Of a stretch of 64,000 bases of DNA, positions 18,083 to 41,838 are shown piece by piece (position 1 is the first letter of the stretch; each line of letters opens with the position of its first letter). This DNA is from a virus (lineage: Duplodnaviria; Caudoviricetes). Position numbers and translations under genes: made by a program. Where the stretch lies: positions 2,427-66,426 of the IMG/VR virus record IMGVR_UViG_3300032233_002329, one strand, 5' to 3'. The notes beneath the pieces are model-generated. The model did not search any database. It was not told the DNA's origin and worked only from the letters and a program-made list of their open reading frames with translations.

Positions 18083-18112
18083 TTGACAGAATCCCCGATT
18101 CTGTGCAACACT
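18083..18112 (+). promoter_or_regulatory. early promoter P3 inside an inverted repeat
   Basis: TTGACA-N18-AACACT; TTGACAGAATC-CCC-GATTCTGTGCAA. Confidence 0.45.
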
Positions 18113-18118
18113 TCATTC

Positions 18119-18613: not shown

Positions 18614-18655
18614 GGCTGAGGGACTTTCCCTCTCCACCCTCAAGCTGTAACCAGC

Positions 18656-18790
18656 ATGGAAACCCGAGAAACGCTCCAAGAACTGATCCACGACGGCCAC
18701 GCTGAGCATTTCGCCAGCGTCCTTGTCCAGCGAATGTCCCTTGCTGACTGCGAGGAATTCCTCGACGACTTTTACGCCGAGCGCGTGTAA
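18656..18790 (+). CDS. small acidic hypothetical protein (44 aa)
   Basis: METRETLQELIHDG...EEFLDDFYAERV; first gene of the early array. Confidence 0.55.
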   Translation: METRETLQELIHDGHAEHFASVLVQRMSLADCEEFLDDFYAERV

Positions 18791-18808
18791 CCCATTCAGG
18801 AACTGCAC

Positions 18809-19000
18809 ATGATTGACAGCAACTGGTTTCCCCCGACTAGCCTCAAAGGCAAGCACTGGCGCGTAGAAGTGCTCGGCATCGACGGCACTTGGTGCTGGTA
18901 CACCGAGCACATGCACCCCAGCCACGCAGAGAGTTTCTGCAAGTACAAGATCGAGTACCACCCCCACGACCAATGGCGCGTAGTGGAGGCATTCCGATGA
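18809..19000 (+). CDS. hypothetical protein
   Basis: Early array; tight spacing. Confidence 0.55.
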   Translation: MIDSNWFPPTSLKGKHWRVEVLGIDGTWCWYTEHMHPSHAESFCKYKIEYHPHDQWRVVEAFR

Positions 19001-19203
19001 TCCACCCCGGCTACGCCACCCCCGAGGACTTCGCCAACTGGCGGTCCCTCGCCGAAACCCTGGACATCCGAGCCCTGCGCTGGGTGATCCGTGACTGCCG
19101 CTCCGTTGCGGCCAACATGCGGCACTTCGACCCCATCCGTGAGGGCTACTACGAGGACCAAGCCTTCACCTACGCCGACGAGCTTGCCCGTCGCTCACGT
19201 TGA
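18997..19203 (+). CDS. hypothetical protein
   Basis: ATGA overlap; MIHPGYATPEDFANW... Confidence 0.6.
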   Translation: MIHPGYATPEDFANWRSLAETLDIRALRWVIRDCRSVAANMRHFDPIREGYYEDQAFTYADELARRSR

Positions 19204-19226
19204 CCCATTCATAAACTGCACGAACC

Positions 19227-19586
19227 ATGACCCCACACAGTCACGCCATCGTGGCCTTCACGTGGTCTGAGGGCCACGGGCCAGGCACCCGTATCAGCAA
19301 CGACCTCCAAGCCCGCATCGCTCAGGACTGGGACCGCTTCCGCGAAGCGGCCGAGGCCCTGGGCTTTGACGCGACCGAACACCGGGCCAGAGCCATAGAC
19401 CCCTTCGAGGGTGATGAATGGGGCTTCGCCGCCCACGACTTCATCCTGACCCGCAACCACCACGGTGCCGGGTTTTGGGATGGCGACTGGCACGACCCCT
19501 GGGGTGAGCGGCTAACCGAGCTGGCCCATACCTTCCCTCAACTTGAGGGCTACTTCGACGACGACCGCATCCTTCGCCTGCTTTGA
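19227..19586 (+). CDS. conserved phage protein
   Basis: AHDFILTRNHHGAGFWDGDW motif, recalled as common in phage early regions. Confidence 0.65.
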   Translation: MTPHSHAIVAFTWSEGHGPGTRISNDLQARIAQDWDRFREAAEALGFDATEHRARAIDPFEGDEWGFAAHDFILTRNHHGAGFWDGDWHDPWGERLTELAHTFPQLEGYFDDDRILRLL

Positions 19587-19589
19587 ACT

Positions 19590-19778
19590 ATGAACCTCGC
19601 CCATCACGTCGTGCTCGACCTCATGTCCGGCACCTTCTTTGACGCGACCAACGCCTACCTCGTTGACATGCGCAAGCTCTCCCCCGAGGAGATCGACACC
19701 TTTAACGATGGCACCGACTCGGACCGCCGCGAGCTGGCTGAGCGGTACGGCCTCGACCTTGAGCATCCACCCACCTGA
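19590..19778 (+). CDS. small acidic hypothetical protein
   Basis: Early array. Confidence 0.55.
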   Translation: MNLAHHVVLDLMSGTFFDATNAYLVDMRKLSPEEIDTFNDGTDSDRRELAERYGLDLEHPPT

Positions 19779-19786
19779 CATAACCC

Positions 19787-19999
19787 ATGCAAAACCTAGG
19801 CCGCATCACTAATCACCACCTCGTGATCTCAGACGCAGAGCAACTCCACTTGATCAATGCTCTGGCGTTCTTCCACGCAATGTTCGACCCGGCTCGTGAG
19901 GACTCCATTAAGGACCTCATTAGTGCCTGGCAGGACGTTGCCGATGACACTCACCTACCCCAAGTAGACGAACTCGCAACCCGTATTGCCCAGATCTAA
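19787..19999 (+). CDS. hypothetical protein
   Basis: Early array. Confidence 0.55.
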   Translation: MQNLGRITNHHLVISDAEQLHLINALAFFHAMFDPAREDSIKDLISAWQDVADDTHLPQVDELATRIAQI

Positions 20000-20001
20000 C
20001 A

Positions 20002-20274
20002 ATGAAACTCCACTTCACGGCTGACCCCGGCCATGGCTGGCTCCACGTCAAGCGAGCCGTCGCACTTGATGTGATGGGCATCGACTTCGTGCGGCTGTCC
20101 CCCTTCTCCTATCAGAGAGGCAAAACCCTCTACCTAGAGGAGGACTGCGACGCCCTGCTGTTCATGAACTGCGCCCGAGCCCGTGGCCTTGAGATCGACG
20201 TTGTCTACAAACACACAAACCGCTCAGCTCCCATTCGCTCCTACGAATCACTCACCCACTACGTCTGCTCCTAA
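20002..20274 (+). CDS. conserved phage protein
   Basis: DPGHGWL...SPFSYQ...YLEEDCD motif. Confidence 0.65.
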   Translation: MKLHFTADPGHGWLHVKRAVALDVMGIDFVRLSPFSYQRGKTLYLEEDCDALLFMNCARARGLEIDVVYKHTNRSAPIRSYESLTHYVCS

Positions 20275-20277
20275 GCC

Positions 20278-21006
20278 ATGACCAAACCCAACCCCAACGG
20301 GCGGGTCCTCTACGAGGGCCCGTCGATGCTTGATGGCGTCCCGATTGTGGTGATCGCCACCGGCTTTGACGAGCCATCCGCCAACGACAAAACCGGGCCA
20401 ATGATCCAAACCTGGATCCTTCGCCAGGACATTCCCCCGCACCACGCCTACCTCAACGGCGAGGGTGCTTCTGTCTGTGGTGACTGCTCCCACTTCCAGA
20501 ACAAAACCTGTTACGTCGAGTGGTGGCGCGCCCCGCTTGCCGTCTGGAACTGCTGGCACCACGGTGCCGGCTATGCCCAGGCCACTCCCGAGGACTTCGA
20601 CGATTGCCTCCTAAGAATGGGCTCTGGTGGTGACCCGGCTGCCGTCCCTCCCTGGGTCTGGCTCCCCGTCATCGTCCGAGCCCGTGGCCGCACCGGTTAC
20701 ACCCACCAATGGCGTGACCCTCGCTTCTCCTGGCTCAAGGGCCTGGTCATGGCGAGTTGTGACGGATTAGGTGACTATTTTGACGCAACCGAATCCGGTT
20801 GGACACCATACTTGGTGAAGCCGGAGCACGAGCCAGACCCGGCTGGCACCGTCCACTGCGCCGCCTCAGCCGAGCGCGGCAACAAAACCACCTGCTCAAA
20901 GTGCCTGCTATGCAACGGATCCAAAACCCCCGTGGTCATCAACGTCCACGGCAAAGGCGCCTCTCGTTTCGAGTGGCAACCAAATCACGAACTGGTGACG
21001 GCATGA
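20278..21006 (+). CDS. Cys-rich conserved phage protein (Gp88-like)
   Basis: NDKTGPMIQTWIL, CGDC-x7-CY, RMGSGGDP, GYTHQW, C-terminal CSKCLLC. Confidence 0.6.
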   Translation: MTKPNPNGRVLYEGPSMLDGVPIVVIATGFDEPSANDKTGPMIQTWILRQDIPPHHAYLNGEGASVCGDCSHFQNKTCYVEWWRAPLAVWNCWHHGAGYAQATPEDFDDCLLRMGSGGDPAAVPPWVWLPVIVRARGRTGYTHQWRDPRFSWLKGLVMASCDGLGDYFDATESGWTPYLVKPEHEPDPAGTVHCAASAERGNKTTCSKCLLCNGSKTPVVINVHGKGASRFEWQPNHELVTA

Positions 21007-21161
21007 CCCATTACCAAACCCCGCCCGCCCAGCGCCGCATGGAGCGGTTCTGCGGCCTGGTCTTCGGCCTCTGGCTGGGCCTCTACGTGATCGATACCGC
21101 CATGCACCCCAAGCCCTCCAACCTTCCCCACGCCCCCTATGCACTCTCACTTCACCCCTGA
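21003..21161 (+). CDS. small membrane protein
   Basis: One hydrophobic segment, FCGLVFGLWLGLYVI. Confidence 0.5.
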   Translation: MTHYQTPPAQRRMERFCGLVFGLWLGLYVIDTAMHPKPSNLPHAPYALSLHP

Positions 21162-21288
21162 TCCCAGGCCCCTCGATCCCCCCGAGTACTGGGAGGACAC
21201 CATCCCCGAGAACTTCGAGGAAGAACTCGACTTCCTTTGGTACCCCTGGTTTCCCGACCAGGAAGCCTTAGATCCGCGCCTCTATTGA
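21139..21288 (+). CDS. very acidic aromatic mini-protein (49 aa)
   Basis: MHSHFTPDPRPLDPPEYWEDTIPENFEEELDFLWYPWFPDQEALDPRLY. Confidence 0.45.
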   Translation: MHSHFTPDPRPLDPPEYWEDTIPENFEEELDFLWYPWFPDQEALDPRLY

Positions 21289-21317
21289 GCGCCCTCATCC
21301 CTCTCTCACTACCCGCT

Positions 21318-21713
21318 GTGACTACAACCACCCTTCGGTTGGTGCCCACCCCGGCGCGCACCACCATCAAGCCCAAGATCCGCAAAGACCGCGCTTACTC
21401 CCCCAGTGGAGGCATAGGCCGGCGCCTAGCTACAGCCCAAGCCCTGCAATTACAGATCCAACGCCTTACCGCCGAACTCGACGAACACCGAGCCTGGTTC
21501 CTGGCACACCTGACCAAGACCAACCTCGACACGCTTGAGCTGGGGGCCTTCACCGTCACCCGCAAGACCCGGCACAACTGGAGCTATTCCCCCGAGACCG
21601 AGCGCGAGATGCTCGGCTTACGTACCACCCAGAAGTGGGAGCAGTCCGAGGGCCTGGCTACCGACTCCCCCACCGTCTACGTGGCGATGACCACCAAGGA
21701 GGTGAAGGCGTGA
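21318..21713 (+). CDS. hypothetical protein (coiled-coil)
   Basis: Likely GTG start at 21318. Confidence 0.6.
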   Translation: MTTTTLRLVPTPARTTIKPKIRKDRAYSPSGGIGRRLATAQALQLQIQRLTAELDEHRAWFLAHLTKTNLDTLELGAFTVTRKTRHNWSYSPETEREMLGLRTTQKWEQSEGLATDSPTVYVAMTTKEVKA

Positions 21714-21997
21714 GCAACTTCCAAGCCACCGAGCACTTGCCTGGGTGCCCTCTGCCCGTTGTTCACCTCAACGGGACGGGCCGCGACACCCTGCTCCGGG
21801 AGTACCGCGAAGCGAGCAAAGCCTTCACGACTTTTAAGCAACGCTTTAGCGATACCACCTGCAACGGTCGGGATTACTACCCCCTAAGCAGTGACGCCTA
21901 CTCCGTTGCCCGGCGTACTCGAAACGCTGTGTTCTGCCTGCTCGACGAGATCGACACCTACCTCGATGACCACCTTGCACACATCGCCAATGACTGA
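21710..21997 (+). CDS. conserved phage protein
   Basis: PVVHLNGTG...NGRDYYP motif. Confidence 0.6.
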   Translation: MSNFQATEHLPGCPLPVVHLNGTGRDTLLREYREASKAFTTFKQRFSDTTCNGRDYYPLSSDAYSVARRTRNAVFCLLDEIDTYLDDHLAHIAND

Positions 21998-22268
21998 CGC
22001 CGCCTTCAACCTGTTTCAGCTCACGCAACGCCCCAACTGGTACCAACACCTAGGGCAAGCCGAGGCCGCCATGGTCGAGGAAGACCGCATTCACGACATC
22101 CGCTGGCGAGCCGGCTGGACTGCTGACGAAGGTGGCTGGTACAGCCCCTGCGGAACCCACGAATCCGACTGGGAGCTGGAGGGTCACCCCTTCCCCGAGG
22201 ACCCCGGCTACGCCGAGTGGGCCGATGCCTTCTGGCATTACGAGGCCCTCGACAACGCCATCGCCTGA
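21990..22268 (+). CDS. acidic Trp-rich hypothetical protein
   Basis: ATG at 21990 overlaps the previous gene. Confidence 0.55.
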   Translation: MTDAAFNLFQLTQRPNWYQHLGQAEAAMVEEDRIHDIRWRAGWTADEGGWYSPCGTHESDWELEGHPFPEDPGYAEWADAFWHYEALDNAIA

Positions 22269-22368
22269 AGTCCCCCCGCAGCCCTTCCCTTAATTGGGTG
22301 GGCTTCCTGGGGACCTCAGCGCTCTCAGCGCTTTTTACGTTTACCCACCTTTACCCACATGTAATTCC

Positions 22369-22632
22369 ATGACCCAATCCCACACCGACCGCATCGCACG
22401 GATGAAACGAGGACCTGTCCGGATCTCCATCACGCTCCCTTTCAGGACGTACAGCGAGCTGGAAAGAACAGCCCAGGCTGAAGGCAGAAGCCTCTCCAAC
22501 CTCAGTGCGTACCTCCTGGAGTGCGCCCTGCAAGCGCGGGCAGCCAAACCAACGCTCCCACCCATTGATTCCGTTCAACCTGTCCTGAATAGGTTGACCA
22601 TACCAACCAAACGCTTTATGGTTGGGCAGTGA
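22369..22632 (+). CDS. ribbon-helix-helix (CopG/Arc-like) regulator
   Basis: RISITLP...ELERTAQAEGRSLSNLSAYLLE. Confidence 0.75.
   Translation: MTQSHTDRIARMKRGPVRISITLPFRTYSELERTAQAEGRSLSNLSAYLLECALQARAAKPTLPPIDSVQPVLNRLTIPTKRFMVGQ
22594..22622 (+). promoter_or_regulatory. sigma-70-type promoter for the DUF932 gene
   Basis: TTGACC-N17-TATGGT; the -35 overlaps TCAACCT-N9-AGGTTGA. Confidence 0.6.
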
Positions 22633-22714
22633 CACCCCGGAGGGCTGCGCCTCCGTCAACAACGCACCTCATCCACGCCGGCGCTCCCCGAGCACTGGCT
22701 CTCTCACTCCACCC

Positions 22715-27384: not shown

Positions 27385-27680
27385 TCGATGCAGGTGGTGG
27401 CCAAGGCATCACTGTTGTGCCGATGGCGGTCGCCACCTTGACCGAAATCATGAACAACCCCGAGGCTCGCGCCTCTGACCGCATCGCCGCCTCCCGAGCC
27501 CTGATCTCCGGAGCCCAAGCCTTCCAGGAACGCAAGATGCTCGAGCGCACCATCGCTGACCTCGAACAGCAGCTATTTGGACTAACAGAGGAAGCTCAGG
27601 CTGCAGAACCAGTCCCTGGCACAGATCTTCTGGACCCTGACCTCAGCCTCCTCTCCTCTGCTGATCCCGAGGCCGAGTGA
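27195..27680 (+). CDS. terS: terminase small subunit
   Basis: N-terminal HTH (CREVARSLNISERTLYTW) plus helical oligomerisation region; overlaps the terL start. Confidence 0.75.
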   Translation: MPGQLRSEIDGLRERERIAVELLARGKTCREVARSLNISERTLYTWRKRPAVQRAVYGQQQDLIDAGGGQGITVVPMAVATLTEIMNNPEARASDRIAASRALISGAQAFQERKMLERTIADLEQQLFGLTEEAQAAEPVPGTDLLDPDLSLLSSADPEAE

Positions 27681-29158
27681 CCGCCTCCTTCTCCCAACTG
27701 CAGCGCCGCGCCGAGAAGCTCCGCGATGAAATCGCCCGGCGCAAAGCTCGCTCTGCCAACTACACCGTCAGCCACCGGCTGACCCAACTCCCCGGTGTGG
27801 AGCAATGGCCAGCCTTCGCCCGTCGTACGTGGATACGTACGGCTGGAACCGTGGCCCCGTTCAACCCCTACCCCTATCAAGTCGATTTGGTGGAGAGCAT
27901 CAACGCCCACCCCAACACGATCATCAACAAGTCGCGCCAGATGGGCGCATCCGAGACCGTTTGCTCCTACCTGCTCTGCCGTGCCCTGACGGAGCGAGGC
28001 TTCGCTGCAGTGATCTTCTCCAAGACCCAGCAGGACGCCAGCGAGCTGGGCCGCCGTGTCCGTGCCATGGCCAACTCCATCGATGGGGAGTCAATCCGCT
28101 ACTTGACGGACTCCAACACCCAGATCGCTATCGAAGGGAGGGGCACCCTGTACTTCCTGCCTGCTTCCCCGAGAGCAGCTCGAGGTATCCCCAGTTGCTC
28201 AGTCCTGTTCATGGACGAGGGAGCCTTCCTAGACGGAGCAGCCGAGATCTACCGAGGTGCCATGCCCACCTTGTCCATGGTTGGAGACGCCGCCAAGGTG
28301 ATCGTCACCTCCACCCCAGATACCGAGCTTGATTGGTTCGGCCAGCTCTGGCACCAAGGCACACCAGCCGACTGGTATGAATACGTCAAACGCCGCCAGA
28401 TCGGACCGCTCAACGAGCGGCTAGCCAAGGTCAAGGACTCTTGGAACCGCGTAGCAATCCACTACAGCCAGCACCCGATCTACGGCCACGACCCCGAATG
28501 GGCAAAGCGCACCCGGGAGTCACGCCGTATGACCCAAGCCGCATGGGACTCCGAGTACGAGCTGGCCTTTGGTGCCACCGACACACAGATCTACCCCTCG
28601 GAACTGGTCCGCCGGGCTGGTCGGGGGTCGTTCCGCGAATGTGGCTCGGTGGGACGGAGCTACGTAATCGGTGTAGATCCGAACGCCGGCGGGAATGACT
28701 ATTTCACGGCAGTGGTTCTTGACATCACAGAAACTCCTTACGAAGTAGTAGGGATGTATCGCGAGAACGGCAAGAGCACTGACTACAGCTTGCGTCATGT
28801 TAAAAACTTGATTGAAGATTACCTTCCAGAGCGGGTAATCGTGGAAAAGCAGGCAATGGGCGCCGTAATTGCAGAGGCGCTTCAACATGTTCTGCCCTCC
28901 TATGCTATCGAAACATTTAATACCAGTCGTCCAAGTAAGACAGTCGCTACTGACCGTGTCCTGTACTTACTGGAGCGAGATGAGCTGATCTTCCCCGAGG
29001 GCGTGATCGGCGAAGAGTTGCGCGCCTTCCAGCAGAAGGAGTCCGGAGCAAGAGAGGCTGCATCCGGTGCCCATGACGACACTGTTATGGCCCTGGCGTT
29101 TGCAGTTTCACTCATTCCAGAGACACCTCAAACTGCAAGCTTCTTTGCTCACATCTAA
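27677..29158 (+). CDS. terL: terminase large subunit
   Basis: KSRQMGAS, FMDEGAF, IGVDP, HDDTVMALA. Confidence 0.95.
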   Translation: MTASFSQLQRRAEKLRDEIARRKARSANYTVSHRLTQLPGVEQWPAFARRTWIRTAGTVAPFNPYPYQVDLVESINAHPNTIINKSRQMGASETVCSYLLCRALTERGFAAVIFSKTQQDASELGRRVRAMANSIDGESIRYLTDSNTQIAIEGRGTLYFLPASPRAARGIPSCSVLFMDEGAFLDGAAEIYRGAMPTLSMVGDAAKVIVTSTPDTELDWFGQLWHQGTPADWYEYVKRRQIGPLNERLAKVKDSWNRVAIHYSQHPIYGHDPEWAKRTRESRRMTQAAWDSEYELAFGATDTQIYPSELVRRAGRGSFRECGSVGRSYVIGVDPNAGGNDYFTAVVLDITETPYEVVGMYRENGKSTDYSLRHVKNLIEDYLPERVIVEKQAMGAVIAEALQHVLPSYAIETFNTSRPSKTVATDRVLYLLERDELIFPEGVIGEELRAFQQKESGAREAASGAHDDTVMALAFAVSLIPETPQTASFFAHI

Positions 29159-31091: not shown

Positions 31092-32948
31092 GTGAGCCAG
31101 CGCCCCATAACCGTCGTGTCCCAAGCCACTTCCGAAGAATTCCGGAACGACGGAGCCCTAGTCAATGTTTTGACTGGAATGGGAATGTCTTCGAAGGATC
31201 GCACAACCTTTACGGGTATTGCCACACCTTCTTTCCTTGGACAATCAGACCTTGAGGCTCTGTACTCCCACGGAATCCCCCGACGTTATGTCGATGCCAT
31301 CTCTGACGAGATCTTGAGGCACCGTACAACCATCACTTTGGGAGGCGATGAAGATCCCAATGCCAACGACACCATCTCGGCATTTGAAGAATTTCTTAAG
31401 AACACTCAGTTCCACCAAGCCCTAGCTGAAGTCATCAAACTTCAACGTTTGTATGGAGGCGCCGGCCTGGTCCTCCTCATTGATGACGGAGTCGAAGATC
31501 CAGCCGAGCCTGTTAATACAAACAACATCCGCGGCATCAACGGCTACATCCCCCTCTCCCGTTGGGAACTTCTCCCAGAGGACTTCACGATCACGGACTG
31601 GTCCAAGCCCACCCACTACCGGATCACCACCAGCCAAAAGATCACAGACGACCAAAAATCCGCCTACGTCAACGTTCGAATCCACCACACCCGGGTTGCC
31701 CGCTTCGATGGTATGTACCTCCCTTGGCGTGTCCGAGCCCGGAACACCGGCTGGGGTCAGTCCGTCCTGCAACTGATCTGGGAGTCCTACAAGCGCTACG
31801 AGTCCGCCATGGCTGGCCTCGAGAACATGACCTCCGATGCGGACATGTTCGTCCACAAGATCCCAGGTCTGTTCCAGCGGATTGCTTCCGGAAACGAAAG
31901 CGATTTGCGCAAGCGCCTCGAGGCCAACAATCTGAGCCGCTCGGTCTATGGCGGCATGGTGGTCGACACCGAAGAGGAGCTGAGCTTCCTCAACCGAGCA
32001 CTCAGCAACATCGCTAACGCCACCGATCCCTTCGTGAAGGATCTGCAAGCAGCCACCGGCTGGCCCGCCTCGATCTTGATGGGTGACTCCCCGGGTGGCC
32101 TAGGCAAAGAAGGACGTTTCGAAGAACGGGTCTGGGCTTCCTTGGTCGAGCAATGGCAGGAGGTCTACTGCCGCACCCCGATCACAGAGATCTTCACGTA
32201 CATCCTGGCTAGTAAACAGGGGCCAACCCGAGGACGGATCCCACCCTCTTGGGCAGCCAGCTTCCCGAGCGTGTTCACGCAGACGGACAGTGAGAAAGCC
32301 GCCTTACGTCTCCAAATAGCGCAGGTGGACGCCCAGTACATCAATCTCGGGGTGCTCAACGCCCTCGAGGTACGCGAAGCGCGCTTCGGTGGCACCGAGT
32401 ACTCGCTTGAGACCACCCTGAACCAGGCAGTCACTGACCAGCTAATCGCCAGTGCTGATGCCCAGTTCCAATCCCAGATGATGGGTTACCAAGCCCAACA
32501 GGAAGCAGCCCTAAATCCTCCGGAACAGGCAGGGATACTCCCGGCCGGCGATACCACTGAAGAAGAGCAACCCCAGCCTGAAGAGAAGACCAAACAGGAC
32601 AAGTTCGACACCTACGAAGCCCAGGGCCTGCGCATCCGTGTTTCGCACGTAGTCGGTGACCTCAAAGCCGGATATCTGGTAGGTCCTGATGGCCAACGCA
32701 CCGATACCAGTGTCAACGCACCCTTGATGGTGTTCGGCCCCCACCGAGCCCGGAGCTACAAGCTCTACCGCGCTCGTTTCGTCTGTGACGGAGCCTTGCT
32801 TGATGGTCCCTACGCCACGGGTTTCGCCTCCCTCAAAGCAGCCAAAGCCGGAATTGCGACTTTCTTCCCTCGACAGAATGTGGCAGGGCTCTCCCCTGTC
32901 CCCGAGGGCGAAATTGAAGCTCTCCGTGCCGCCTGGGAGGTGTACTAA
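31092..32948 (+). CDS. portal protein (DUF1073/HI1409 family) with a C-terminal accessory domain
   Basis: QRLYGGAGLVL, IHHTRVARFDG, WGQSVLQ, LMGDSPGGL; first head gene after the terminase region. Confidence 0.88.
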   Translation: MSQRPITVVSQATSEEFRNDGALVNVLTGMGMSSKDRTTFTGIATPSFLGQSDLEALYSHGIPRRYVDAISDEILRHRTTITLGGDEDPNANDTISAFEEFLKNTQFHQALAEVIKLQRLYGGAGLVLLIDDGVEDPAEPVNTNNIRGINGYIPLSRWELLPEDFTITDWSKPTHYRITTSQKITDDQKSAYVNVRIHHTRVARFDGMYLPWRVRARNTGWGQSVLQLIWESYKRYESAMAGLENMTSDADMFVHKIPGLFQRIASGNESDLRKRLEANNLSRSVYGGMVVDTEEELSFLNRALSNIANATDPFVKDLQAATGWPASILMGDSPGGLGKEGRFEERVWASLVEQWQEVYCRTPITEIFTYILASKQGPTRGRIPPSWAASFPSVFTQTDSEKAALRLQIAQVDAQYINLGVLNALEVREARFGGTEYSLETTLNQAVTDQLIASADAQFQSQMMGYQAQQEAALNPPEQAGILPAGDTTEEEQPQPEEKTKQDKFDTYEAQGLRIRVSHVVGDLKAGYLVGPDGQRTDTSVNAPLMVFGPHRARSYKLYRARFVCDGALLDGPYATGFASLKAAKAGIATFFPRQNVAGLSPVPEGEIEALRAAWEVY

Positions 32949-35749
32949 TGGAAAACCATCAACAAGACACCTCCAGAGCAGCCGCTTACCTCGCAGCTAA
33001 GCATCGCTTAGATCTACGGGGTCCCAAATCGACTCGCACGGGTAAGACGCGGGGAACAGTCCAGTGCAAGCCACCCAATAAAAAGTGTGGTGGACGGTGC
33101 ATTCCACCCAACTGGGACTGCCGGCTTGAGGGGAAAGGCACAAACTCTGAGCTTGCAGCCCACAAGACCGACCCACTGGCAGGTATTGCTTCCATCCAAC
33201 GCGGCTCGAAAGACTTGTTCCAGGGTGTAGTCCGGGTCAACCCAGCCCAGGTTCAGCGAGGACGTAATTCACTGATCCGCGGCACAGTCAAGCTGGCACC
33301 AGGCAATAATCTCGAGCAGAAAAAACAACTTAAAAAGCAACTAACTGAAGCCAGCACACCAATCATGGCGGTGTTGGGAGTAACCCTGGTTGGCCTGGCT
33401 GGGCACGCCGGTCTGAAAAAAGGCTTCGCTGCTTATCGCAACGGTGTCGGGGCTCAAATTGACCGGGCTGCCACGACTGCTGTCGATTCAATCCTGGATC
33501 GAATGCCGGGAGTTGCCGGAAACCGTGCCGCAACTCGTGCTGCTGGTGCCTCCGCTGCAAATGAAATTGCTGGCGTCGTCACCCGTGGGCAGCGCCTTGT
33601 TCAAACCCGCGTAGCTACGTCAGGCAACGTTGGGCGTATTGGTCCCCTCAGCTTCCGCCCAAATGCAGCCAACACAGAAGCCAGCGGGCTGCGTTCCAGC
33701 CTTGACCAACTCAACGCACGAGCCCGAGCAGGCCAGCTCAGCTACGACGAATACCGCTCCTCTGCTGTGCAGACTCTCTACGGCGCACGTAGTCCAGGTA
33801 CCCGACCTAATGGTCAGCGTGGAAGCATCTTCTCCGAGCACGCAGCTAACGAGTTTCTGACTTCAAAATTTGGTCTCAATGGTGCGGGTGCTGTCGGGTC
33901 AAGCGGTGGCTATTCGATGGCTGCTCGCAACGCTCTTGTGGATACACAGGTAGCCGAACGACTTGGAGCTTGGGGTCAAGCAATGCGAAATGACATGCAG
34001 ATCCGTCGGATGACGGGTCCTCAAGGAAATATCCGTACACGTGACATCAATGAATACATCCGAACTGTTGGTGCAAATGCACTGGGACAACCCCTTGCAG
34101 GGATGAATGCAGCACAAAGACGCCAAGCCACTAGCGAAGCCAACCGCCTGATGCGCTCTGTTTTGAGTGGGAACAACCTCAACTTGGAAGCCCGATCTAT
34201 GCGTCGCTCCTTGGTAAGTGAGTTCGACACCTACTTCGAAAACACGGCCCAAATGATGCGGCGAAACGCAGCTGCATCCGATTCGCCATTCGGAGACGGA
34301 CTAACAGGTTTAGCTCGCTATGTACGCCGTACCACCAATAACCCGGGACCAATCCTGAGCCGAGACCACGCCGATCTGATCGTTCGCAATGACTATCACA
34401 CCCGGGTTATGCAACTGCGCAATGACTACACCATCGGTGAAAACACAGCGCGCCGCATTGCCCAACAGATCACCCGTAGCCCAAATCTGCCCGATGTGGA
34501 CTCTGCCTTCCGTGTCCTCAACCAGAACGGTTTCCCCCGTCTAAGCCGACGTGGACCAACCACTGGTCGTGCCCCCGCACAGTTGCGCAACCTCACCCAA
34601 CTAACCCGTGACATCCTGGCCCGCCCAGGAAACCAGGGCATGTCTCGAGCAGCAGCGGAGCGCGAAGCACGTCGCATCATTGAACAACGTGGTCGCACCG
34701 ATGCGGCAGGAGCGGAACGCCTGGGAAAGCCCTGTGGGGAGTCAAACATCCCCAAATCACACAAATGCAGCAAAAACGTAGCCCCAGCTAACGGTCAAGT
34801 TCTAAAAACAGCTGCGACAGTTGCCCTAGCTACCGGTGCTGTAGCCGGGGCTGCCGTACTGCTGTCTTCCACGGGCAAAAAAGCCGATCTTAACTCTCGT
34901 TTCGATATCCATCACGGGCTGGACCCCAATGACCCCGAGTACGGCCGTAAGCACTACGAGAAGATCCGGGACACCGCTCGCAATTACAGCCCAAAGGAGA
35001 TGGCTGATCAAATCCGTAAAGCCGGAGCTAACAAACTCACCGAGCCTGAAGCCGTTGAACTTTGCGCATCCTGGGTGGAGAAGCACAAGATCGGCCTAGA
35101 TCCCAAAGCCCTAGAAAAAGTCAAGAATGATGTGCACCCGGATGACTGGGAAGAGCTAGTCACAAGACCTATTAACTCTGGCGGCTATTTTGATGGACAT
35201 GGCAAGGAAATTTGGATCAGACGGCGCGGTCACTTAGATCGTTGGGATGGACGCGCAGTAGACAGTGCAATCGATGGGATTCACTTCAATTTGGACAAGA
35301 TCAAAGAGTTTCAAGGTTTATCGAGCCAAGAGCGATTCGGCAAAGAGGGCGTTTATATGCCAGCCATGAGTGTCTTTGGGGCGGGGATGCGCAACAGAAG
35401 TGGTCAAGATCTTGTTTCATTTCTGCATGAGGTTGGCCATTCCGTCCATTACGCGGCAAATCGCTTCTCCACAAAACCTTTTACCAGCATGGCCTTTGGG
35501 AAACCGAGGCTTATCAACCCAAAAGCCAGCGACTTCCAGAAACAGATTAAGAAAGTACTTTCAAACTATGGGACACAAGATTTGAGCGGAGAAATGGCCG
35601 AAGCTTTTGCTGAATCAAGCGTGCTATATGTATTAGCAAACAAGCGCTTGCTCCAGGACGCACCATTGGTCCATGCCTGGGTGGAATACACGTACCACCA
35701 GGCCCACACCAAGGCTGATAAAAAGCCCCTCATGAGGAACCTCTTCTAA
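32948..35749 (+). CDS. modular 933-aa head-region protein with two Cys modules and a C-terminal zincin metallopeptidase
   Basis: CGx3Ix5C at 33086 and 34733, each with a downstream hydrophobic helix; HEVGH at 35426 plus distal EAFAE. Confidence 0.7.
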   Translation: MENHQQDTSRAAAYLAAKHRLDLRGPKSTRTGKTRGTVQCKPPNKKCGGRCIPPNWDCRLEGKGTNSELAAHKTDPLAGIASIQRGSKDLFQGVVRVNPAQVQRGRNSLIRGTVKLAPGNNLEQKKQLKKQLTEASTPIMAVLGVTLVGLAGHAGLKKGFAAYRNGVGAQIDRAATTAVDSILDRMPGVAGNRAATRAAGASAANEIAGVVTRGQRLVQTRVATSGNVGRIGPLSFRPNAANTEASGLRSSLDQLNARARAGQLSYDEYRSSAVQTLYGARSPGTRPNGQRGSIFSEHAANEFLTSKFGLNGAGAVGSSGGYSMAARNALVDTQVAERLGAWGQAMRNDMQIRRMTGPQGNIRTRDINEYIRTVGANALGQPLAGMNAAQRRQATSEANRLMRSVLSGNNLNLEARSMRRSLVSEFDTYFENTAQMMRRNAAASDSPFGDGLTGLARYVRRTTNNPGPILSRDHADLIVRNDYHTRVMQLRNDYTIGENTARRIAQQITRSPNLPDVDSAFRVLNQNGFPRLSRRGPTTGRAPAQLRNLTQLTRDILARPGNQGMSRAAAEREARRIIEQRGRTDAAGAERLGKPCGESNIPKSHKCSKNVAPANGQVLKTAATVALATGAVAGAAVLLSSTGKKADLNSRFDIHHGLDPNDPEYGRKHYEKIRDTARNYSPKEMADQIRKAGANKLTEPEAVELCASWVEKHKIGLDPKALEKVKNDVHPDDWEELVTRPINSGGYFDGHGKEIWIRRRGHLDRWDGRAVDSAIDGIHFNLDKIKEFQGLSSQERFGKEGVYMPAMSVFGAGMRNRSGQDLVSFLHEVGHSVHYAANRFSTKPFTSMAFGKPRLINPKASDFQKQIKKVLSNYGTQDLSGEMAEAFAESSVLYVLANKRLLQDAPLVHAWVEYTYHQAHTKADKKPLMRNLF

Positions 35750-35949
35750 TGGACGGCCCGACCTACAAGAAGTACTCGGATCAGGTGGCTGCCTATGCAG
35801 CAGAAGGTAACACCAAGGCCATTGGCGAGCTATGTGATCGCCTGCTAGCCGAGGGCGAAGACTTTGACCTGGTCAGCACGCTTGGCGTGTACATCGAAGC
35901 CTCTGTCCTGCGTAACTCCCGCCTACGTAAGGCGGACAAAAAGCCCTAA
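35749..35949 (+). CDS. small hypothetical protein
   Basis: TAATG-coupled to the peptidase gene. Confidence 0.55.
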   Translation: MDGPTYKKYSDQVAAYAAEGNTKAIGELCDRLLAEGEDFDLVSTLGVYIEASVLRNSRLRKADKKP

Positions 35950-35955
35950 AGGTCC

Positions 35956-36840
35956 ATGGACCTGATTGAGGAGTACAACCAGATCCTCCGCACAACCGAG
36001 GACGGAACCATACGGCTGCTTAACCGCGTCCTTGATCAGTCCTTCAACCGCATCGTGCGCCGCACGCGCATCCAAATGAAGGCTGGGTACAGCGATGCCC
36101 AGCAACGGAACCTGGCTCTGCTTCAAGAATTCCGGAACCTCGTCCCTGCCTACCGCCCAGACCGGGTCGATGCCTATGACCGACTACTTCGCACCTTGTT
36201 AGGAGACGCAAGCCGCTCGGGCCTCGATGTGGCCAGCCAACTGACCGAGCAAATGACCCCGGGCAAGCCCAGGATCGATGTATCCATCCCCCTGGATGCC
36301 ACGGTCTCCGCCGCTGCCCAAGCCAAGGGCTACCTACGCAAACACGGTGAGACCTTTGCCACCAAAGCAGCCGAGGTCGTAGCCAAGGGCATTGCCGAAG
36401 GTCGTGCCACCGACTCCATGGTCCAGGACATGCGCCTGCGCCTGGGTGTGGTCAAGTCCAGAGCCGACGTCATCGTCCGCACCGAAACCCTGCGGGCCTA
36501 CAACGACGCCTCGAACAACTACTACGCCAACCAGGGCATCGATCTGGTGATGTACTACGCCACTGCAGACGATCGCAGCTGCCCTTACTGCGCACCGAGG
36601 GCGGGCAAGATCTACAAACGCCAGGAGATCAAGGTTCCTCTTCACCCCCGGTGCCGGTGCTTCCTATCCCCCTGGGACCCCGACATTGCCCAGATGGACC
36701 CGGACTACGCAGCAAAACGGGCCAAACACAGCAAAGAAGTCGCTCAAGCAATTAGCAAAAATGGCACTATAGAGCCCGTCAACCTCAGTCGTGCCGCTGT
36801 GTTTGAGCAAGTTGCTCCGACTCCTATTGCTTTAACTTGA
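35956..36840 (+). CDS. minor head protein, MuF/SPP1 gp7 family
   Basis: IVRTETLRAYN, ADDRSCPYC, PLHPRCRC. Confidence 0.9.
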   Translation: MDLIEEYNQILRTTEDGTIRLLNRVLDQSFNRIVRRTRIQMKAGYSDAQQRNLALLQEFRNLVPAYRPDRVDAYDRLLRTLLGDASRSGLDVASQLTEQMTPGKPRIDVSIPLDATVSAAAQAKGYLRKHGETFATKAAEVVAKGIAEGRATDSMVQDMRLRLGVVKSRADVIVRTETLRAYNDASNNYYANQGIDLVMYYATADDRSCPYCAPRAGKIYKRQEIKVPLHPRCRCFLSPWDPDIAQMDPDYAAKRAKHSKEVAQAISKNGTIEPVNLSRAAVFEQVAPTPIALT

Positions 36841-36942
36841 ACCAAGAACGTTAATAAGTACTCCGGCCTGCTATTCAGGCTGCTATTAGTAACCCTCGCT
36901 AAGCTGGCCTATACCGAGTGGGCCAAAGGTGCCCTCTTCGCC

Positions 36943-37875
36943 ATGGCACGCCCCACCAAACAGCGCCCCCCTGTAAAGCAGGAAGCAGAAGAGATGGAAG
37001 CCCAGGAAATGGGTGAAACTCCCGAAGAGGAAGCCCGTGAAGGCACCGAGGACGGAGTCTCTATGAAGAACAGCAGGAAGCGCAGCCCCAAAGGTGCCAA
37101 AAACACCAAGGCCCCGATGGACGCTGACTGCGGCATCTGTAAATCCAACAAGCCCTGCTCCTGTAAAGCCAAGAAAGACGGTGGCTGTGGTAGCTACGGC
37201 AAGAAGATGGACCGTAATGATGCCCTGACCCCTCAGGAATATCTCGCTGCATGCGATCTGGGTATCCAAGACCGCAGCCGCCCCTACATCCGCGCTCGTT
37301 TGGACAGCGCAGCACGCCTCGACCTCAAATGTGGAAACGGCTCCATTTCCGAGGGCGAGACATGCACCAAAGGGACGGCACAGAAAGCTCGACCAGCCAA
37401 TAAAGGTGGTGGAGTACGCGGTGCTCTAGAAAACGCAGCGATTCTCAGTGGTACTGCAGGGACATTATTCAGCACTGGACAAGCAATCGGGAAAACGATG
37501 TCGGGGGACTTTAAGGGAGCGGGGCGTGCTCTTCAACGTCAAGGTGCATTTGCAGCCCTAAGTGCTACTGGCATGGCTTCCAAAGGCGCCCGCACCAACA
37601 GTAAATTTATTAAGCAGCAGGCCAAACGTTCATTAGGTTCTGGTGCTGTATCCGCAGTTGTTGGGTCCGCACTCACTGGTGACTTGAACAAAGCAAATCT
37701 GTCAGGAGCCAAAAGCGCTGCTTCACAGGTAGGAGCAAAACTTCGGAACCTTGCCGGGGGTGCATCCGCAGCAAAGAGCAACGTGACCTTCCGCACCAAG
37801 AAGTCTCAATTTGAACGGATGTACAAGAGCCCCGGTCGTCGCGATTCCGTCTGGGCCCAGGGCTTCGAACCATGA
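36943..37875 (+). CDS. modular head-region protein with an acidic/Cys N-terminus and one Cys module
   Basis: EAEEMEAQEMGE..., CGICK..CSC, RLDLKCGNGSISEGETCTK, Ala/Gly-rich helices. Confidence 0.65.
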   Translation: MARPTKQRPPVKQEAEEMEAQEMGETPEEEAREGTEDGVSMKNSRKRSPKGAKNTKAPMDADCGICKSNKPCSCKAKKDGGCGSYGKKMDRNDALTPQEYLAACDLGIQDRSRPYIRARLDSAARLDLKCGNGSISEGETCTKGTAQKARPANKGGGVRGALENAAILSGTAGTLFSTGQAIGKTMSGDFKGAGRALQRQGAFAALSATGMASKGARTNSKFIKQQAKRSLGSGAVSAVVGSALTGDLNKANLSGAKSAASQVGAKLRNLAGGASAAKSNVTFRTKKSQFERMYKSPGRRDSVWAQGFEP

Positions 37876-38717
37876 CCCTGACCCCGCGCTCTATCCGTAT
37901 AGACCGGGCAGGTAATCCCTGCTGGGGAGGGTATGAGCAGTTGGGAATGAAGCGCCAAGGCAAGCGATCCGTTCCCAATTGTGTGCCGGTCCAGCAAAAA
38001 GCACAGAAGGACTCCGAGACCGACGGCAAAAAGTACACCAAGGTCGTCACCAACCCCGAAACCGGCCGCAAAAACAAGGTCCGTTACGGCGCCAAGGGCT
38101 ACCGCATCGCACCTGGCACTGACAAGGGTGATCGCTACTGCGCCCGCTCCTTCGGGGACATGAAATCCGAGGGCTACAACTGCGCCGGCGCAGAACGCAA
38201 CACCCCGCTTTGCCTCTCCCGTGCGAAATGGAAGTGCTCAGGAGAATCCAGCCGCCGCGATGCCAAAGGCCGGGCCTGTGGTCAAGGCCACATCGCTGCG
38301 TCTAAGCACTGCCAAAAGAAAGGAGCGTTCCCCACTGGTAAAGCCATCGCTGCAGGACTAACAGCCGGTGCCGTTGGTGCCGCACTATTACACAACGGCA
38401 GCCGAAAAGCCATCCTCAACGCACCCGGTGCTCTGCAACGCACAGCCCAAAAAGGCATCACCGAGGCCGTTCATCACGCCACTGCCCCGGCACCATCCAT
38501 GCGTTTGACCGGTCAAGCCATGCGCCAGACCATCAAAGGCATCAAAAAACAATCCACCAAGCGTCAGATGAAGCTGACCATGGAAGCCGCCCGCCGTAAA
38601 CACGAGCCCGGTTACCGCAAACCTCGTTTCCCCGACCGCAAGGACAACTACATCCAGCACTACGCCCCGGTTAAGCTCCAACCTCCGAACAAGCGTGACT
38701 GGAATCCAAACAGTTAG
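37872..38717 (+). CDS. modular head-region protein made of three Cys mini-domains
   Basis: PCWGGYEQLGMK..VPNCVP; YCARS..KWKC; CGQGHIAASKHC plus a TM-like helix. Confidence 0.7.
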   Translation: MTLTPRSIRIDRAGNPCWGGYEQLGMKRQGKRSVPNCVPVQQKAQKDSETDGKKYTKVVTNPETGRKNKVRYGAKGYRIAPGTDKGDRYCARSFGDMKSEGYNCAGAERNTPLCLSRAKWKCSGESSRRDAKGRACGQGHIAASKHCQKKGAFPTGKAIAAGLTAGAVGAALLHNGSRKAILNAPGALQRTAQKGITEAVHHATAPAPSMRLTGQAMRQTIKGIKKQSTKRQMKLTMEAARRKHEPGYRKPRFPDRKDNYIQHYAPVKLQPPNKRDWNPNS

Positions 38718-38929
38718 ATCCCTTTGATCAAATCTTGCAGCGTCATGCCATAAAGGTCGCTCAAACTAAACAACTTTGTAAGCGAAACCTCAACTTCCCC
38801 TTTTTCCAACCTCGAATAGGCCGCCTGACTCACACAAAGTACCTCTGCAACCTCCATTTGTGTCAGTCCAGCATGCTCCCTTAGGCCCCGCATGCGACGA
38901 CACAACATCAATTGCCTGTGGATCGCCAA
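38714..38929 (-). CDS. XRE HTH regulator
   Basis: LREHAGLTQMEVAEVLCVSQAAYSRLEKG. Confidence 0.85.
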   Translation of the reverse strand: MAIHRQLMLCRRMRGLREHAGLTQMEVAEVLCVSQAAYSRLEKGEVEVSLTKLFSLSDLYGMTLQDLIKGI

Positions 38930-38991: not shown

Positions 38992-40284
38992 ATGGAAACA
39001 TCTGTTTCTCGCTACGATTTCGCGCCTATCACAGGTAGCGAAACCACCGAGGAGGGTTACCTCCGCGTGTGGTGTCGTGCGGCGCGTACGGGCACCCAGC
39101 TCTATCGACGTGCAGATGGTTCACAAGTCCGGGAATACAGACCCCCTGAAGAGGTCAGTAATCCCGACGCTCTCTCCACGTTCGGTATGAAAGCCGCTAC
39201 GTGGGGACACCCACCCGTCCTTCTCGACGCGGCAAACACAAAGCAGTTCCAGATTGGCTATTCAGGTAGCCAAGTTCGGTATAACGACGGCTTTGTAGAA
39301 GTTGCACTCGTCGTCACTGACGCCGATGCCATCGAGAAGATCAAGCGCAAAGATGCCACCGAGGTGTCCGCCGGCTACAAAGTCGACTTCGACCCCACCC
39401 CCGGAATCACACCCGAGGGCGAGGAGTATGCCGGTGTCCAACGCAACATCCGGGTAAACCACATCGCCATCGTTCCTCGTGGCCGGGCCGGTCCCGAGGT
39501 ACGCCTTCTGCTCGATCGCATGGATGCAGCCGATGCTGTCTCCTGCCCCGAGTACGAGTTGGCACTCCAGCCCAGTCAACCTGCATCTCCCGTTATGGCC
39601 ACCGTCAAACTGGACGGCCTGGAGATCGATCTGCCCGCAGAAGCAGCTACGGCGGTCCAGTCCTTCGCCCGGGACATGGAGCGCCAACTCAAAGCTGTTT
39701 CCACCGAGCGCGACGAGCTTTCTTCCAAGCTCGACTCCCTCCAAGCAGATTTCGACTCCATCGCCTACGAGAAAGAATCCGCCGAAGGTCGTGCCGACGC
39801 TCTCGAAGAGCGGCTGGCCGAATTCGACAACGGTTCTGCTCGCATTGACACAGCCGAACTCGACCAACTGGTCGCTGCTCGTCTGTCCACCCTGCAAAAC
39901 CTGGCTCCCGCCTTTGCCGACGATTTCAAATTCGACGGAATTGACGACGCCACCCTCTACACCCAGGCTTTCGAAAACCTGACCGGCAACGCCCCCCGCG
40001 AGGACGCTGAGCCTTCTTACATCCAAGGTGTAGTCGACGGCATTCTTGCCGCTCGTGCTGACTCCGAGGACGACGAAGAAGGTGAAGATGACGCCCCCGA
40101 GGGTGAAGGCGAAGTTGCCGAAGAAGGCGAAGCCAAAGAGGACGCCGCTGACGCTCGTTCGGACAGCTCTGCTGCCCTGCGCAACGCGCTGAAAGGCGCC
40201 GGCAGTGCAAACGCCACCCCCGAGAGCGTTTATCGCTCGAAGATGGCGGATGCCTGGAAGCGTCCCCTGACCGCCACTAAGTAA
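38992..40284 (+). CDS. DUF2213 family putative prohead protease/scaffold
   Basis: TEEGYL, ARTGTQLY, EVSAGY, NHIAIVPRGRAGPEVRL; acidic coiled-coil C-terminal half. Confidence 0.88.
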   Translation: METSVSRYDFAPITGSETTEEGYLRVWCRAARTGTQLYRRADGSQVREYRPPEEVSNPDALSTFGMKAATWGHPPVLLDAANTKQFQIGYSGSQVRYNDGFVEVALVVTDADAIEKIKRKDATEVSAGYKVDFDPTPGITPEGEEYAGVQRNIRVNHIAIVPRGRAGPEVRLLLDRMDAADAVSCPEYELALQPSQPASPVMATVKLDGLEIDLPAEAATAVQSFARDMERQLKAVSTERDELSSKLDSLQADFDSIAYEKESAEGRADALEERLAEFDNGSARIDTAELDQLVAARLSTLQNLAPAFADDFKFDGIDDATLYTQAFENLTGNAPREDAEPSYIQGVVDGILAARADSEDDEEGEDDAPEGEGEVAEEGEAKEDAADARSDSSAALRNALKGAGSANATPESVYRSKMADAWKRPLTATK

Positions 40285-40920: not shown

Positions 40921-41838
40921 ATGACCAACGAAATCCGTAACGACGAAGTCGGCGTGTTTCTCGCCAGGGAACTCGAGACAATCCTGTCTCGCACCTTTGA
41001 AGTCGAGTACGCCGACATCAAGTACAGCACCCTGATCCCGATTTCTTCGGAAGTCAATCCCGGCGCTGACTCCTACACCTTCCGAGTCTTCGACAAGCAA
41101 GGCTCGATGAAAGTGATCGGGGACAAGGCATCTGACCTGCCCCGCGCTGACGTGCTCCGCAAGGAAGTGACCTACCCGGTCCGTTCCTTGGGTGCCTCCT
41201 TCGCCTACACCATCCAGGAAACCCGTGCCGCCGCCATGGTGCCCGGCATGAACCTGGAGCAACGCCGCGCTAACGCAGTGCGTCGTGCTTATGAGGAGAA
41301 GGTTCAGGAAATCGCTTTCTACGGCGATGCCGCCTCCGGCATGAAGGGCTTCTTCAACAACGATCAGGTCGACAAAACCGTGCCTGATAAGTGGTTTGAC
41401 ACCGCTGGTGTTACCACCGATGAAATGCTGGCACTTTTGAACGAGGCACCCACCCGCCTGGTTCAAAACTCCAACATGAAGGAGAGCCCCAACACGATGT
41501 TGGTGCCCTACAACGTGTACCGCATCATTTCCACCACCCCCCGTTCGACCACCTCGGACACCACGGTGATGGAATTCTTCCTGCGCACCAACCCGATGAT
41601 CAGCTCGATCGAGCCGATCAACGAGCTGGAAGCCAGCAAGTCCAGCGGCTCACTGTCGAAGGACCGGATCCTGGTTTATGACCGGAGCCCCGACAAGCTG
41701 CAACTCCACGTGCCCCAGCCCCTGGAGTTCCTGCCTCCCGTCCGTCAAGCCCTCGAATTCTCGGTGGCAGCCCACGCACGTGTTGGCGGTCTTGCGCTCT
41801 ATTACCCCAAGAGCGCCATGGTGCTCGAAAAGGCATAA
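40921..41838 (+). CDS. major capsid protein (DUF2184 family)
   Basis: FLARELE, IAFYGD...G, PNTMLVP, GGLALYYP. Confidence 0.9.
   Translation: MTNEIRNDEVGVFLARELETILSRTFEVEYADIKYSTLIPISSEVNPGADSYTFRVFDKQGSMKVIGDKASDLPRADVLRKEVTYPVRSLGASFAYTIQETRAAAMVPGMNLEQRRANAVRRAYEEKVQEIAFYGDAASGMKGFFNNDQVDKTVPDKWFDTAGVTTDEMLALLNEAPTRLVQNSNMKESPNTMLVPYNVYRIISTTPRSTTSDTTVMEFFLRTNPMISSIEPINELEASKSSGSLSKDRILVYDRSPDKLQLHVPQPLEFLPPVRQALEFSVAAHARVGGLALYYPKSAMVLEKA

Follow-up and report, generated by a model that had tools for sequence, protein, structure and literature searches.

A conserved, portable cysteine loop in the portal-to-protease interval of an uncultured phage

Do the short cysteine motifs that recur in three head-gene products of an uncultured tailed phage form a genuine module, and what might such a module do? 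We analyzed a 64,000-nucleotide stretch (64 kb; hereafter the window) of the 66,426-bp phage record IMGVR_UViG_3300032233_002329 (Duplodnaviria; Caudoviricetes), in which the head module lies on the + strand. An earlier note, made from the letters alone, had described four identically spaced copies of C-G-x3-I-x5-C in three genes lying between portal, MuF and protease, each preceded by R-x-D and followed by a hydrophobic helix and an unrelated cargo, and had proposed a modular packaging and membrane-insertion tag. We found the pattern four times in a six-frame translation of the window, always inside the three head-module open reading frames (ORFs), and there was no further in-frame 12-mer copy elsewhere in the genome. 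By comparison, 100 shuffles of the window yielded a mean of 0.42 strict-pattern copies, with a maximum of 3. The 12-mers start at 33086, 34733, 37330 and 38277, all on the + strand, with R-x-D ahead of copies 1 to 4 at −27, −13, −5/−11 and −8, respectively; the copies, their spacing and the preceding R-x-D were as the note had them. The three ORFs and their features are as follows.

32948..35749, + strand: 933-aa two-unit head polyprotein ORF (unit 1: leader, four-Cys loop, all-alpha domain; unit 2: loop, hydrophobic helix, HExxH cargo)
33002..33013, + strand: H-R-L-D closing the N-terminal leader helix (aa 19-22), a candidate protease site
33065..33121, + strand: Cys loop copy 1, four-Cys form (aa 40-58), with the 12-mer proper at 33086-33121
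33122..34702, + strand: conserved all-alpha "Arg-rich" domain of unit 1, ending at R-T-D 34694-34702
33359..33415, + strand: hydrophobic Ala/Gly/Val/Leu stretch of unit 1 (aa 138-156) by Kyte-Doolittle, within helix 122-159 predicted by AlphaFold2 (AF2)
34733..34768, + strand: Cys loop copy 2 (aa 596-607), R-T-D at −13
34808..34864, + strand: hydrophobic helix of unit 2 (aa 621-639)
34865..35746, + strand: cargo of unit 2, a zincin-like HExxH domain with HEVGH at 35426-35440
36943..37875, + strand: 310-aa ORF, always the first gene after MuF among orthologues
37129-37164, + strand: CxxC-x5-CxC cluster of the 310-aa ORF, after an acidic N-terminus
37297-37323, + strand: double R-L-D of the 310-aa ORF
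37330-37365, + strand: Cys loop copy 3, in the 310-aa ORF
37435-37470: weak Ala/Gly stretch of the 310-aa ORF, whose tail is Ser/Ala/Gly/Lys-rich
37872..38717, + strand: 281-aa two-unit ORF
37878-37904, + strand: leader M-T-LTPxxIRID of the 281-aa ORF
37920-38237, + strand: six-Cys CWxGY/TDKGD domain of the 281-aa ORF
38253-38261, + strand: R-R-D ahead of loop copy 4
38277-38312, + strand: Cys loop copy 4, in the 281-aa ORF
38343-38390: hydrophobic helix of the 281-aa ORF, then basic helices

The Cys loop is a conserved portable module and not a chance recurrence. Across 563 non-redundant copies the consensus was C1 G2 x [SG]4 x5 I6 [PSA]7 x [GN]9 x [KT]11 C12 [RTH]13 K14 G15, and position 6 was Ile in 98% of them despite a search pattern permitting seven residues there. 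In a test independent of that pattern, we compared C-x10-C pairs, and observed G2 and I6 together in 198 of the 274 pairs from ORFs of portal-protease intervals versus 0 of 23 from other ORFs of the same loci. The earlier note had suggested surveying phages with a hidden Markov model of the motif plus helix; a profile of 62 columns built from 144 copies matched 609 clusters at E<=1e-3, 208 of them at <=1e-10, among 1.84e9 representatives, with up to six loop copies per protein and one false positive in the 149 top matches. The profile found no match among Pfam, NCBIfam or PDB sequences, and the text of the paper on polyvalent proteins contains none of the words "cysteine", "transmembrane" or "linker" (Iyer, Burroughs, Anand, de Souza, Aravind 2017, PMC5512222), in agreement with the note's statement that the module was not recognizable as a described one. 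Searching bacterial genome contigs with the type-C alignment returned a single 1-kb contig of a metagenome-assembled genome, so that sequenced bacterial genomes contain practically no loop phages. Single-protein locus searches of IMG/VR with P0157 and P0149 found nothing, and an alignment of P0157 and P0263 searched in metagenomes retrieved no locus.

The loop subtypes are old and orthologous: a four-Cys form, always N-terminal in the giant ORF that follows the portal gene; G-K-P-C-G-A-S-H-I-P-K-A-H-E-C in the middle of that ORF; R-L-D-L-K-C-G-K-G-x-I-S-E-G-E-K-C; C-G-Q-S-H-I-A, with a nearly invariant helix; and that of a four-Cys 164-aa ORF. Orthologues of the 933-aa ORF keep its post-portal position in every related locus. 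R20 and D22, at the end of its leader (AF2 helix 6-21), were invariant among 41 orthologues, as were C40, C47, C51 and C58 of copy 1, which AF2 models with a beta-hairpin at 45-47/50-52. The 281-aa ORF had 249 homologues; in 98 of the 120 listed we found the loop, frequently placed at residues 14-17 behind M-x-LTPxx-hydrophobic-RxD. Of the IMG/VR loci, 207 encode the six-Cys domain of this ORF and 140 the commonest loop type.

The module is restricted to head genes in these loci. We fetched related loci with queries from the window, and all the long ones shared the order TerL, portal, giant ORF, MuF, motif ORFs, protease and capsid, with every loop-bearing ORF between the portal and the DUF2213 protease. 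All 44 distinct complete portal-protease intervals (4.8-11.5 kb), which represent one clade, contained loops, at 2-6 loop ORFs and 3-9 loops each. Head linkage was read in these 44 intervals and in two further lineages. Overlaps couple translation along the array in the window, with TAATG at the junctions of the portal gene with the 933-aa ORF and of the latter with a 66-aa ORF, and ATGA between the 310-aa and 281-aa ORFs.

One of the two further lineages is an unrelated 105-kb phage (L136; Ga0208966_1000005, 10001-22635) with 11 Cys loops, divided among a 761-aa ORF (four), a polyvalent ORF (six) and an N-terminal extension that the protease carries (one). Its loop proteins sit directly upstream of the Mu-like protease I domain and the major head protein. 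The polyvalent ORF, of >2000 aa and downstream of the capsid gene, has loops between and around InPase, ART-PolyVal and PolyA_pol domains, and these domains make it a textbook polyvalent protein. A frequent form of the L136 loops is C-G-D-S-H-I-P-D-G-H-Q-C-H; no helix follows the loops, their flanks are acidic, and Asn replaces R-x-D, at Asn-Gly and Asn-Ser junctions that could also self-cleave. The loop in the protease extension fits procapsid entry or processing better than membrane action. The other lineage (L143, L157, L165 and L141 of IMG/VR) has loops of the forms G-Q-P-C-G-x-G-W-I-S-x-D-K-x-C and, with four Cys, C-x-T-G-Y-x-C-G-x-x-C-I-S; ahead of each lie a helical ...R-L-D-A-R... leader and then a Gly-rich spacer, and a hydrophobic helix is lacking downstream. 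In L143 its loop ORFs adjoin a phrog_530 protease and the capsid gene; in L165 their neighbors are MuF-like and portal-like genes.

The sites ahead of the loops point to the head protease. We observed R-x-D within 30 aa upstream of 277 of 315 loops (88%), exactly at −5 in 155 of them, and the spacing was fixed within subtypes (−5, −8, −13, −19). Units are shuffled between these sites: most homologues of the 281-aa ORF carry its two units in reverse order, each bounded by R-x-D, and homologous ORFs often end right after R-R-D, sometimes with the start of the next LTP leader added. Of the 162 non-redundant ORFs that lie between MuF and protease, 55 start with the leader M-x-LTPxx-hydrophobic-RxD, an undercount given that some starts are mis-called. 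Alignments of the protease-scaffold protein revealed nine conserved R-x-D columns, six of them within its scaffold-like tail, and R-x-D is also conserved at the N-termini of the capsid (R6-x-D8) and portal (R18-x-D20) proteins; the terminase and 202-aa protein alignments had zero conserved R-x-D. Such a distribution is the pattern that would be expected of DUF2213 cleavage after Asp, in analogy to L/I-x-E and the gp21 protease of T4 (PMC9026906). In the second lineage with a phrog_530 (DUF2213-type) protease, R-L-D again precedes every loop. In the Mu-protease lineage L136, R-x-D precedes 0 of 11 loops and Asn lies at −3 to −8 in 11 of 11. This split between R-x-D with DUF2213-type proteases and Asn with the Mu-type supports R-x-D as the putative cleavage site of the DUF2213 protease.

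Behind the loops, the cargo is exchanged. In a Pfam survey of 95 non-redundant loop ORFs we found protein-kinase-like cargo (Pkinase, APH, ABC1, RIO, Kdo; 13 members), LRAT/NlpC-P60 (9), DnaJ (6), TCAD9 (2), and one member each of ADP-ribosyltransferase, Class-3 lipase, Hydrolase_4 and DUF5872; distant profile matches add a PI3/4-kinase-like domain, a cutinase, an esterase and Rho_N. Cargo segments formed 21 clusters, several of them common to different loop subtypes. At one syntenic slot, LRAT/NlpC-P60 in the related loci L018 and L026 takes the place of HExxH in the window, the preceding loop subtype and helix being unchanged. Both features on which the earlier note had staked its interpretation, the link to head modules and the swapping of cargo, were therefore present. 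Its zincin cargo stood in part: HEVGH is in place, and otherwise the domain gave weak Atlas structural leads to anthrax-lethal-factor-like zincins (ATLF) and to Peptidase_M90 (TM 0.41-0.49), with no relatives among proteins of 513-1633 aa. The 530-aa all-alpha domain, modeled by AF2 with a mean predicted local distance difference test score (pLDDT) of 78 and a predicted template modeling score of 0.66, forms one cargo cluster of 37; a Foldseek search of PDB and BFVD returned nothing at E<=0.001 (TM-scores <=0.15). The 933-aa ORF as a whole had no match in Pfam, PHROG or NCBIfam, and its all-alpha and HExxH domains, like the six-Cys domain and helical unit of the 281-aa ORF, are not Pfam-named.

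We propose, with confidence about evenly balanced, that the three ORFs encode head-internal, protease-processed effector polyproteins of the polyvalent or ejection kind, with a Cys-loop unit header. Polyvalent and internal head proteins are already a known kind; the header is previously undescribed. Each cassette would consist of a hydrophobic-R-x-D site, then, 2-27 residues on, the 12-residue loop closed by two invariant Cys (C-G-x-[SG]-x-I-[PSA]-x-[GN]-x-[KT]-C), usually (in this clade) the helix, and the cargo. The precursors would be co-produced with the head genes through translational coupling and brought into the procapsid by the leader and loop header, where the DUF2213 prohead protease would cut after the Asp of R-x-D to give single units. 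These would be kept in the head beside the DNA and exit via the tail at infection, and the hydrophobic helix would anchor some of them at the host membrane for the enzymatic cargo to act there (zincin-like here; kinase, LRAT/NlpC-P60, DnaJ, ADP-ribosyltransferase or lipase in relatives). A more specific reading, which we hold only tentatively, makes the loop a portable capsid-loading header that, with a protease-matched junction residue, addresses the downstream domain into the procapsid and sets the cut site. The junction would be Asp with DUF2213 and perhaps Asn with Mu-type proteases, and the loop might acquire its disulfide once the virion is released and lose it by reduction in the host cytoplasm.

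Several observations weigh against this proposal, some of them against its membrane step. A hydrophobic helix follows 63% of loops and is missing after 37%, and it is absent throughout the two other loop-keeping lineages; the loop is therefore the core of the module, and the helix appears to be an add-on of this clade. Where present, the helices are Ala/Gly-rich, basic on both sides and merely moderately hydrophobic, and their flanks have equal net charge (+2.3 vs +2.3), with no positive-inside asymmetry from which a topology could be read. AF2 modeled the loop-helix unit that forms the second unit of the 281-aa ORF at low confidence (pLDDT 61), with a tiny hairpin and a helix at the hydrophobic stretch. 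In the window itself, the helix claimed after each copy was clear for copies 2 and 4 (an Ala/Gly-rich hydrophobic stretch 10-13 residues past the loop) and failed for the other two: the copy 3 stretch, AAILSGTAGTLF, is too weakly hydrophobic for the Kyte-Doolittle threshold, and that of copy 1 lies ~80 residues downstream, inside a long predicted helix. The modularity, head linkage and cargo swapping of the tag stood, as did its lack of an earlier description in the libraries and papers searched, and "membrane-insertion tag" is the weakest part of its interpretation, a half that these helix data do not bear out. Beyond the helix, we found no published cleavage specificity for DUF2213 proteases in the literature, and the polyvalent-protein paper proposes processing by zincin domains instead (PMC5512222). 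The protease-borne loop of L136 fits a targeting or processing role and not an effector-only role, and none of the cultured phages in INPHARED has the Cys loop. Packaging, cleavage, delivery, membrane anchoring and the loop chemistry are all steps that we infer from sequence.

We weighed effector polyproteins against narrower explanations of the same genes. The loop could be a processing mark only, a small rigid hairpin that, acting as an exosite or a structural stop, displays the site ahead of it to the prohead protease, with no capsid-targeting or membrane role and with the helix belonging to particular cargos. The optional helix, the fixed R-x-D spacing within subtypes, and the loops at every polyvalent domain junction of L136 and in its protease N-terminal extension, where self-processing is expected, all speak for such a mark. 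However, the loop is kept across DUF2213 and Mu-like I proteases while the junction shifts from Asp to Asn, and with two protease families sharing the loop, a shared exosite is less likely than a shared non-protease partner. Moreover, the protease-scaffold, capsid and portal proteins hold conserved R-x-D without any loop, and we consider this explanation unlikely. We regard as improbable an assembly-only core or scaffold, which would fill the procapsid, be cut at R-x-D and be expelled before or during DNA packaging, its enzymes acting in the producing cell. Its appeal lies in the location of the genes between the portal and protease-scaffold genes, in an R-x-D richness like that of the scaffold part of the protease protein, and in the largely helical, basic proteins with low-complexity tails. 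However, the Synechococcus siphovirus S-CBS4, with the same protease and capsid families, builds heads without loop proteins; loop genes number anywhere from 2 to 6, hence they are accessory; and kinase, ADP-ribosyltransferase, DnaJ, lipase and LRAT domains are typical of injected effectors and polyvalent proteins. In addition, a polyvalent protein has been found in mature phi24B virions, where gp47 is abundant by mass spectrometry and absent from the cryo-EM map (bioRxiv 10.64898/2026.04.10.717836), a precedent for polyvalent proteins inside the capsid.

The remaining explanations concern the loop itself. Were the loops zinc knuckles binding packaged DNA or its ends, in condensing or pilot proteins oligomerized by the helix, the very basic proteins and basic flanks of this clade (K-x-C-G ... 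C-x-K-G) would make sense, as would the His residues that some subtypes often have at positions 5, 10 and 13 and that L136 loops also contain. However, 307 of the 563 copies (55%) hold only C1 and C12, with no His/Cys partner, and L136 flanks are acidic. Furthermore, an additional Cys at position 5 was always paired with a Cys at −7/−8 (90 of 90 copies with Cys5, against 3 of the other 473), in at least three contexts and in the separate L143 lineage; this paired gain resembles a second disulfide and favors two disulfides over a zinc site. We rejected a canonical zinc site of four Cys/His ligands, as most copies lack the ligands and neither Pfam nor PDB gave a zinc-finger match. Both AF2 models have a small beta-hairpin at the loop, for which closure by a disulfide is more likely than zinc binding; the His residues of some subtypes keep metal binding open. 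Zinc knuckles on DNA accordingly strike us as very doubtful. A lipobox reading of L-K-C-G was also discarded, as no signal peptide or lipobox residues were seen in the sequence. Lastly, the motif is short and the protein tails are of low complexity, as would befit chance or low-complexity artefacts in mis-called ORFs; enrichment, position-specific conservation and hundreds of orthologous copies, with none outside the head interval, rule this out for practical purposes.

The proposed effector polyproteins are closest to phage polyvalent proteins, which are large multi-domain proteins, likewise lie beside portal, MuF and terminase genes, are predicted to be packaged and injected, and share effector types with the cassettes described here and in relatives (kinase-like, ADP-ribosyltransferase and, putatively, zincin metallopeptidase; PMC5512222). 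The loop-bearing relative L136 carries the polyvalent family Pfam domains InPase and ART-PolyVal, and multi-effector polypeptides occur in relatives (kinase with DUF5872; InPase with ART-PolyVal and PolyA_pol). The window proteins had no match to LPD, InPase, ART-PolyVal or other polyvalent Pfam families. Unlike polyvalent proteins, the units here are headed by a Cys loop and a putative prohead-protease site, and are often split into separate small ORFs. The loop is not a general feature of polyvalent proteins, as those of Pag-Yong1 (Planktothrix), Tunturi_5 (Tunturiibacter) and F116 (Pseudomonas) are without any C-x10-C.

MuF-fused polymorphic toxins are an established class, with which the earlier note had compared these genes. 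MuF-effector fusions are also discussed in PMC5512222. They too place variable effectors near MuF; unlike them, the cargo here is unfused, MuF being a separate 294-aa ORF without cargo (PF04233 covers residues 139-237, with no additional domain), and the comparison failed in this respect. The closer frame is that of phage-type polyvalent proteins combined with T4-style leader and protease processing. T4 capsid-targeting sequences, with the internal proteins IPI-III and Alt, and the protease-processed ejection proteins of SPN3US are established cases (PMC9026906, PMC10052503). A T4 capsid-targeting sequence is a short leader ending in a prohead protease site, and the 11-residue M-x-LTPxx-hydrophobic-RxD resembles it by sequence pattern alone. 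T4-, phiKZ- and SPN3US-like phages likewise have a scaffold full of the same sites, and their head cargo is ejected (PMC9026906, PMC10052503). Unlike T4, whose gp21 protease cuts at L/I-x-E (PMC9026906), the protease here is DUF2213/phrog_530 and not of the gp21 type, and the presumed P1 residue is the Asp of R-x-D and not Glu. The phage also differs from the T4 and phiKZ types as a siphovirus with a lambda-like tail, in which the conserved Cys loop would stay on the mature unit and the units, known here from genes, are concatenated.

Podovirus ejection proteins (T7 gp14-16, P22 gp7/16/20, N4) form a trans-envelope channel. They too are head-internal, with hydrophobic segments that reach host membranes. 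However, we found no sequence or fold similarity to them (PHROG; Foldseek against PDB and BFVD), and the units here carry enzymes; the phage has a tape-measure tail, and a channel role is therefore not needed, unlike in podoviruses. The closest cultured phage is S-CBS4 (capsid identity 54%), and from this isolate we take the host to be, probably, a picocyanobacterium. S-CBS4 shares the layout of portal, minus-strand repressor, protease, 200-aa protein and capsid, with the interval filled by glycosyltransferases and small ORFs instead; Cys-loop proteins were not found in its head module. As it has the same head genes and no loop proteins, the cassette array is accessory for head building.

To our knowledge, the choice of proteins for loading into the head and the cutting of polyvalent proteins are known in detail only for a few model phages (T4, P1, phiKZ-like). 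Here, a short recognizable header marks cargo units in several uncultured phage lineages, and the junction residue follows the protease family. The header also brings to light a set of enzymes that picocyanobacterial phages probably inject, namely kinases, LRAT/NlpC-P60 proteins, zincins, DnaJ proteins, ADP-ribosyltransferases and lipases. If the loop does load capsids, it would be a compact tag for loading foreign proteins into siphovirus heads, part of a general grammar, valid across lineages, by which phage-delivered effectors are loaded and released and which could be used to engineer head cargo.

The neighboring genes bore the identities that the earlier note had given them, and the head module is completed by the following features.

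27677-29158, + strand: large terminase (TerL), followed by an HNH endonuclease before the portal gene
31092..32948, + strand: portal protein (PF06381, 1.2e-57; phrog_146)
35749-35949: acidic, helical 66-aa ORF between the 933-aa ORF and MuF
35956..36840, + strand: MuF-like minor head protein, stand-alone and without Cys loop (PF04233, 1.2e-12; phrog_115)
38714-38929, − strand: small XRE-type helix-turn-helix gene, lying antisense with the head cargo genes on one side and the protease on the other
38992..40284, + strand: DUF2213 head-maturation protease with scaffold-like tail (PF09979, 2.6e-41; phrog_530)
Between the protease and capsid genes: 202-aa ORF
40921-41838: major capsid protein (PF09950)

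The 66-aa ORF, TAATG-coupled to the HExxH cargo, had a homologue in none of 80 related loci beyond the window, and may be a cargo-specific partner or inhibitor. The minus-strand XRE gene occupies the position of the S-CBS4 gene annotated as a transcriptional repressor. In the 310-aa ORF, the acidic N-terminus (M-P-A-x-x-K-K-R-P-P-x-E-M-E-P-G-E-G...) is conserved in all orthologues, and the CxxC-x5-CxC/acidic region could be either a genuine zinc site or a propeptide of scaffold-like character. The six-Cys CWxGY...TDKGD...KWKC domain of the 281-aa ORF belongs to no Pfam family and is widespread among phages: in gp066/gp065 of the cyanomyovirus S-TIM5, two small genes beside virion genes; in a T4-like cyanophage, where it closes a Lys-rich 511-aa ORF lying between gp16 and gp17; and in Roseobacter phage CRP-212 and Vibrio phages.

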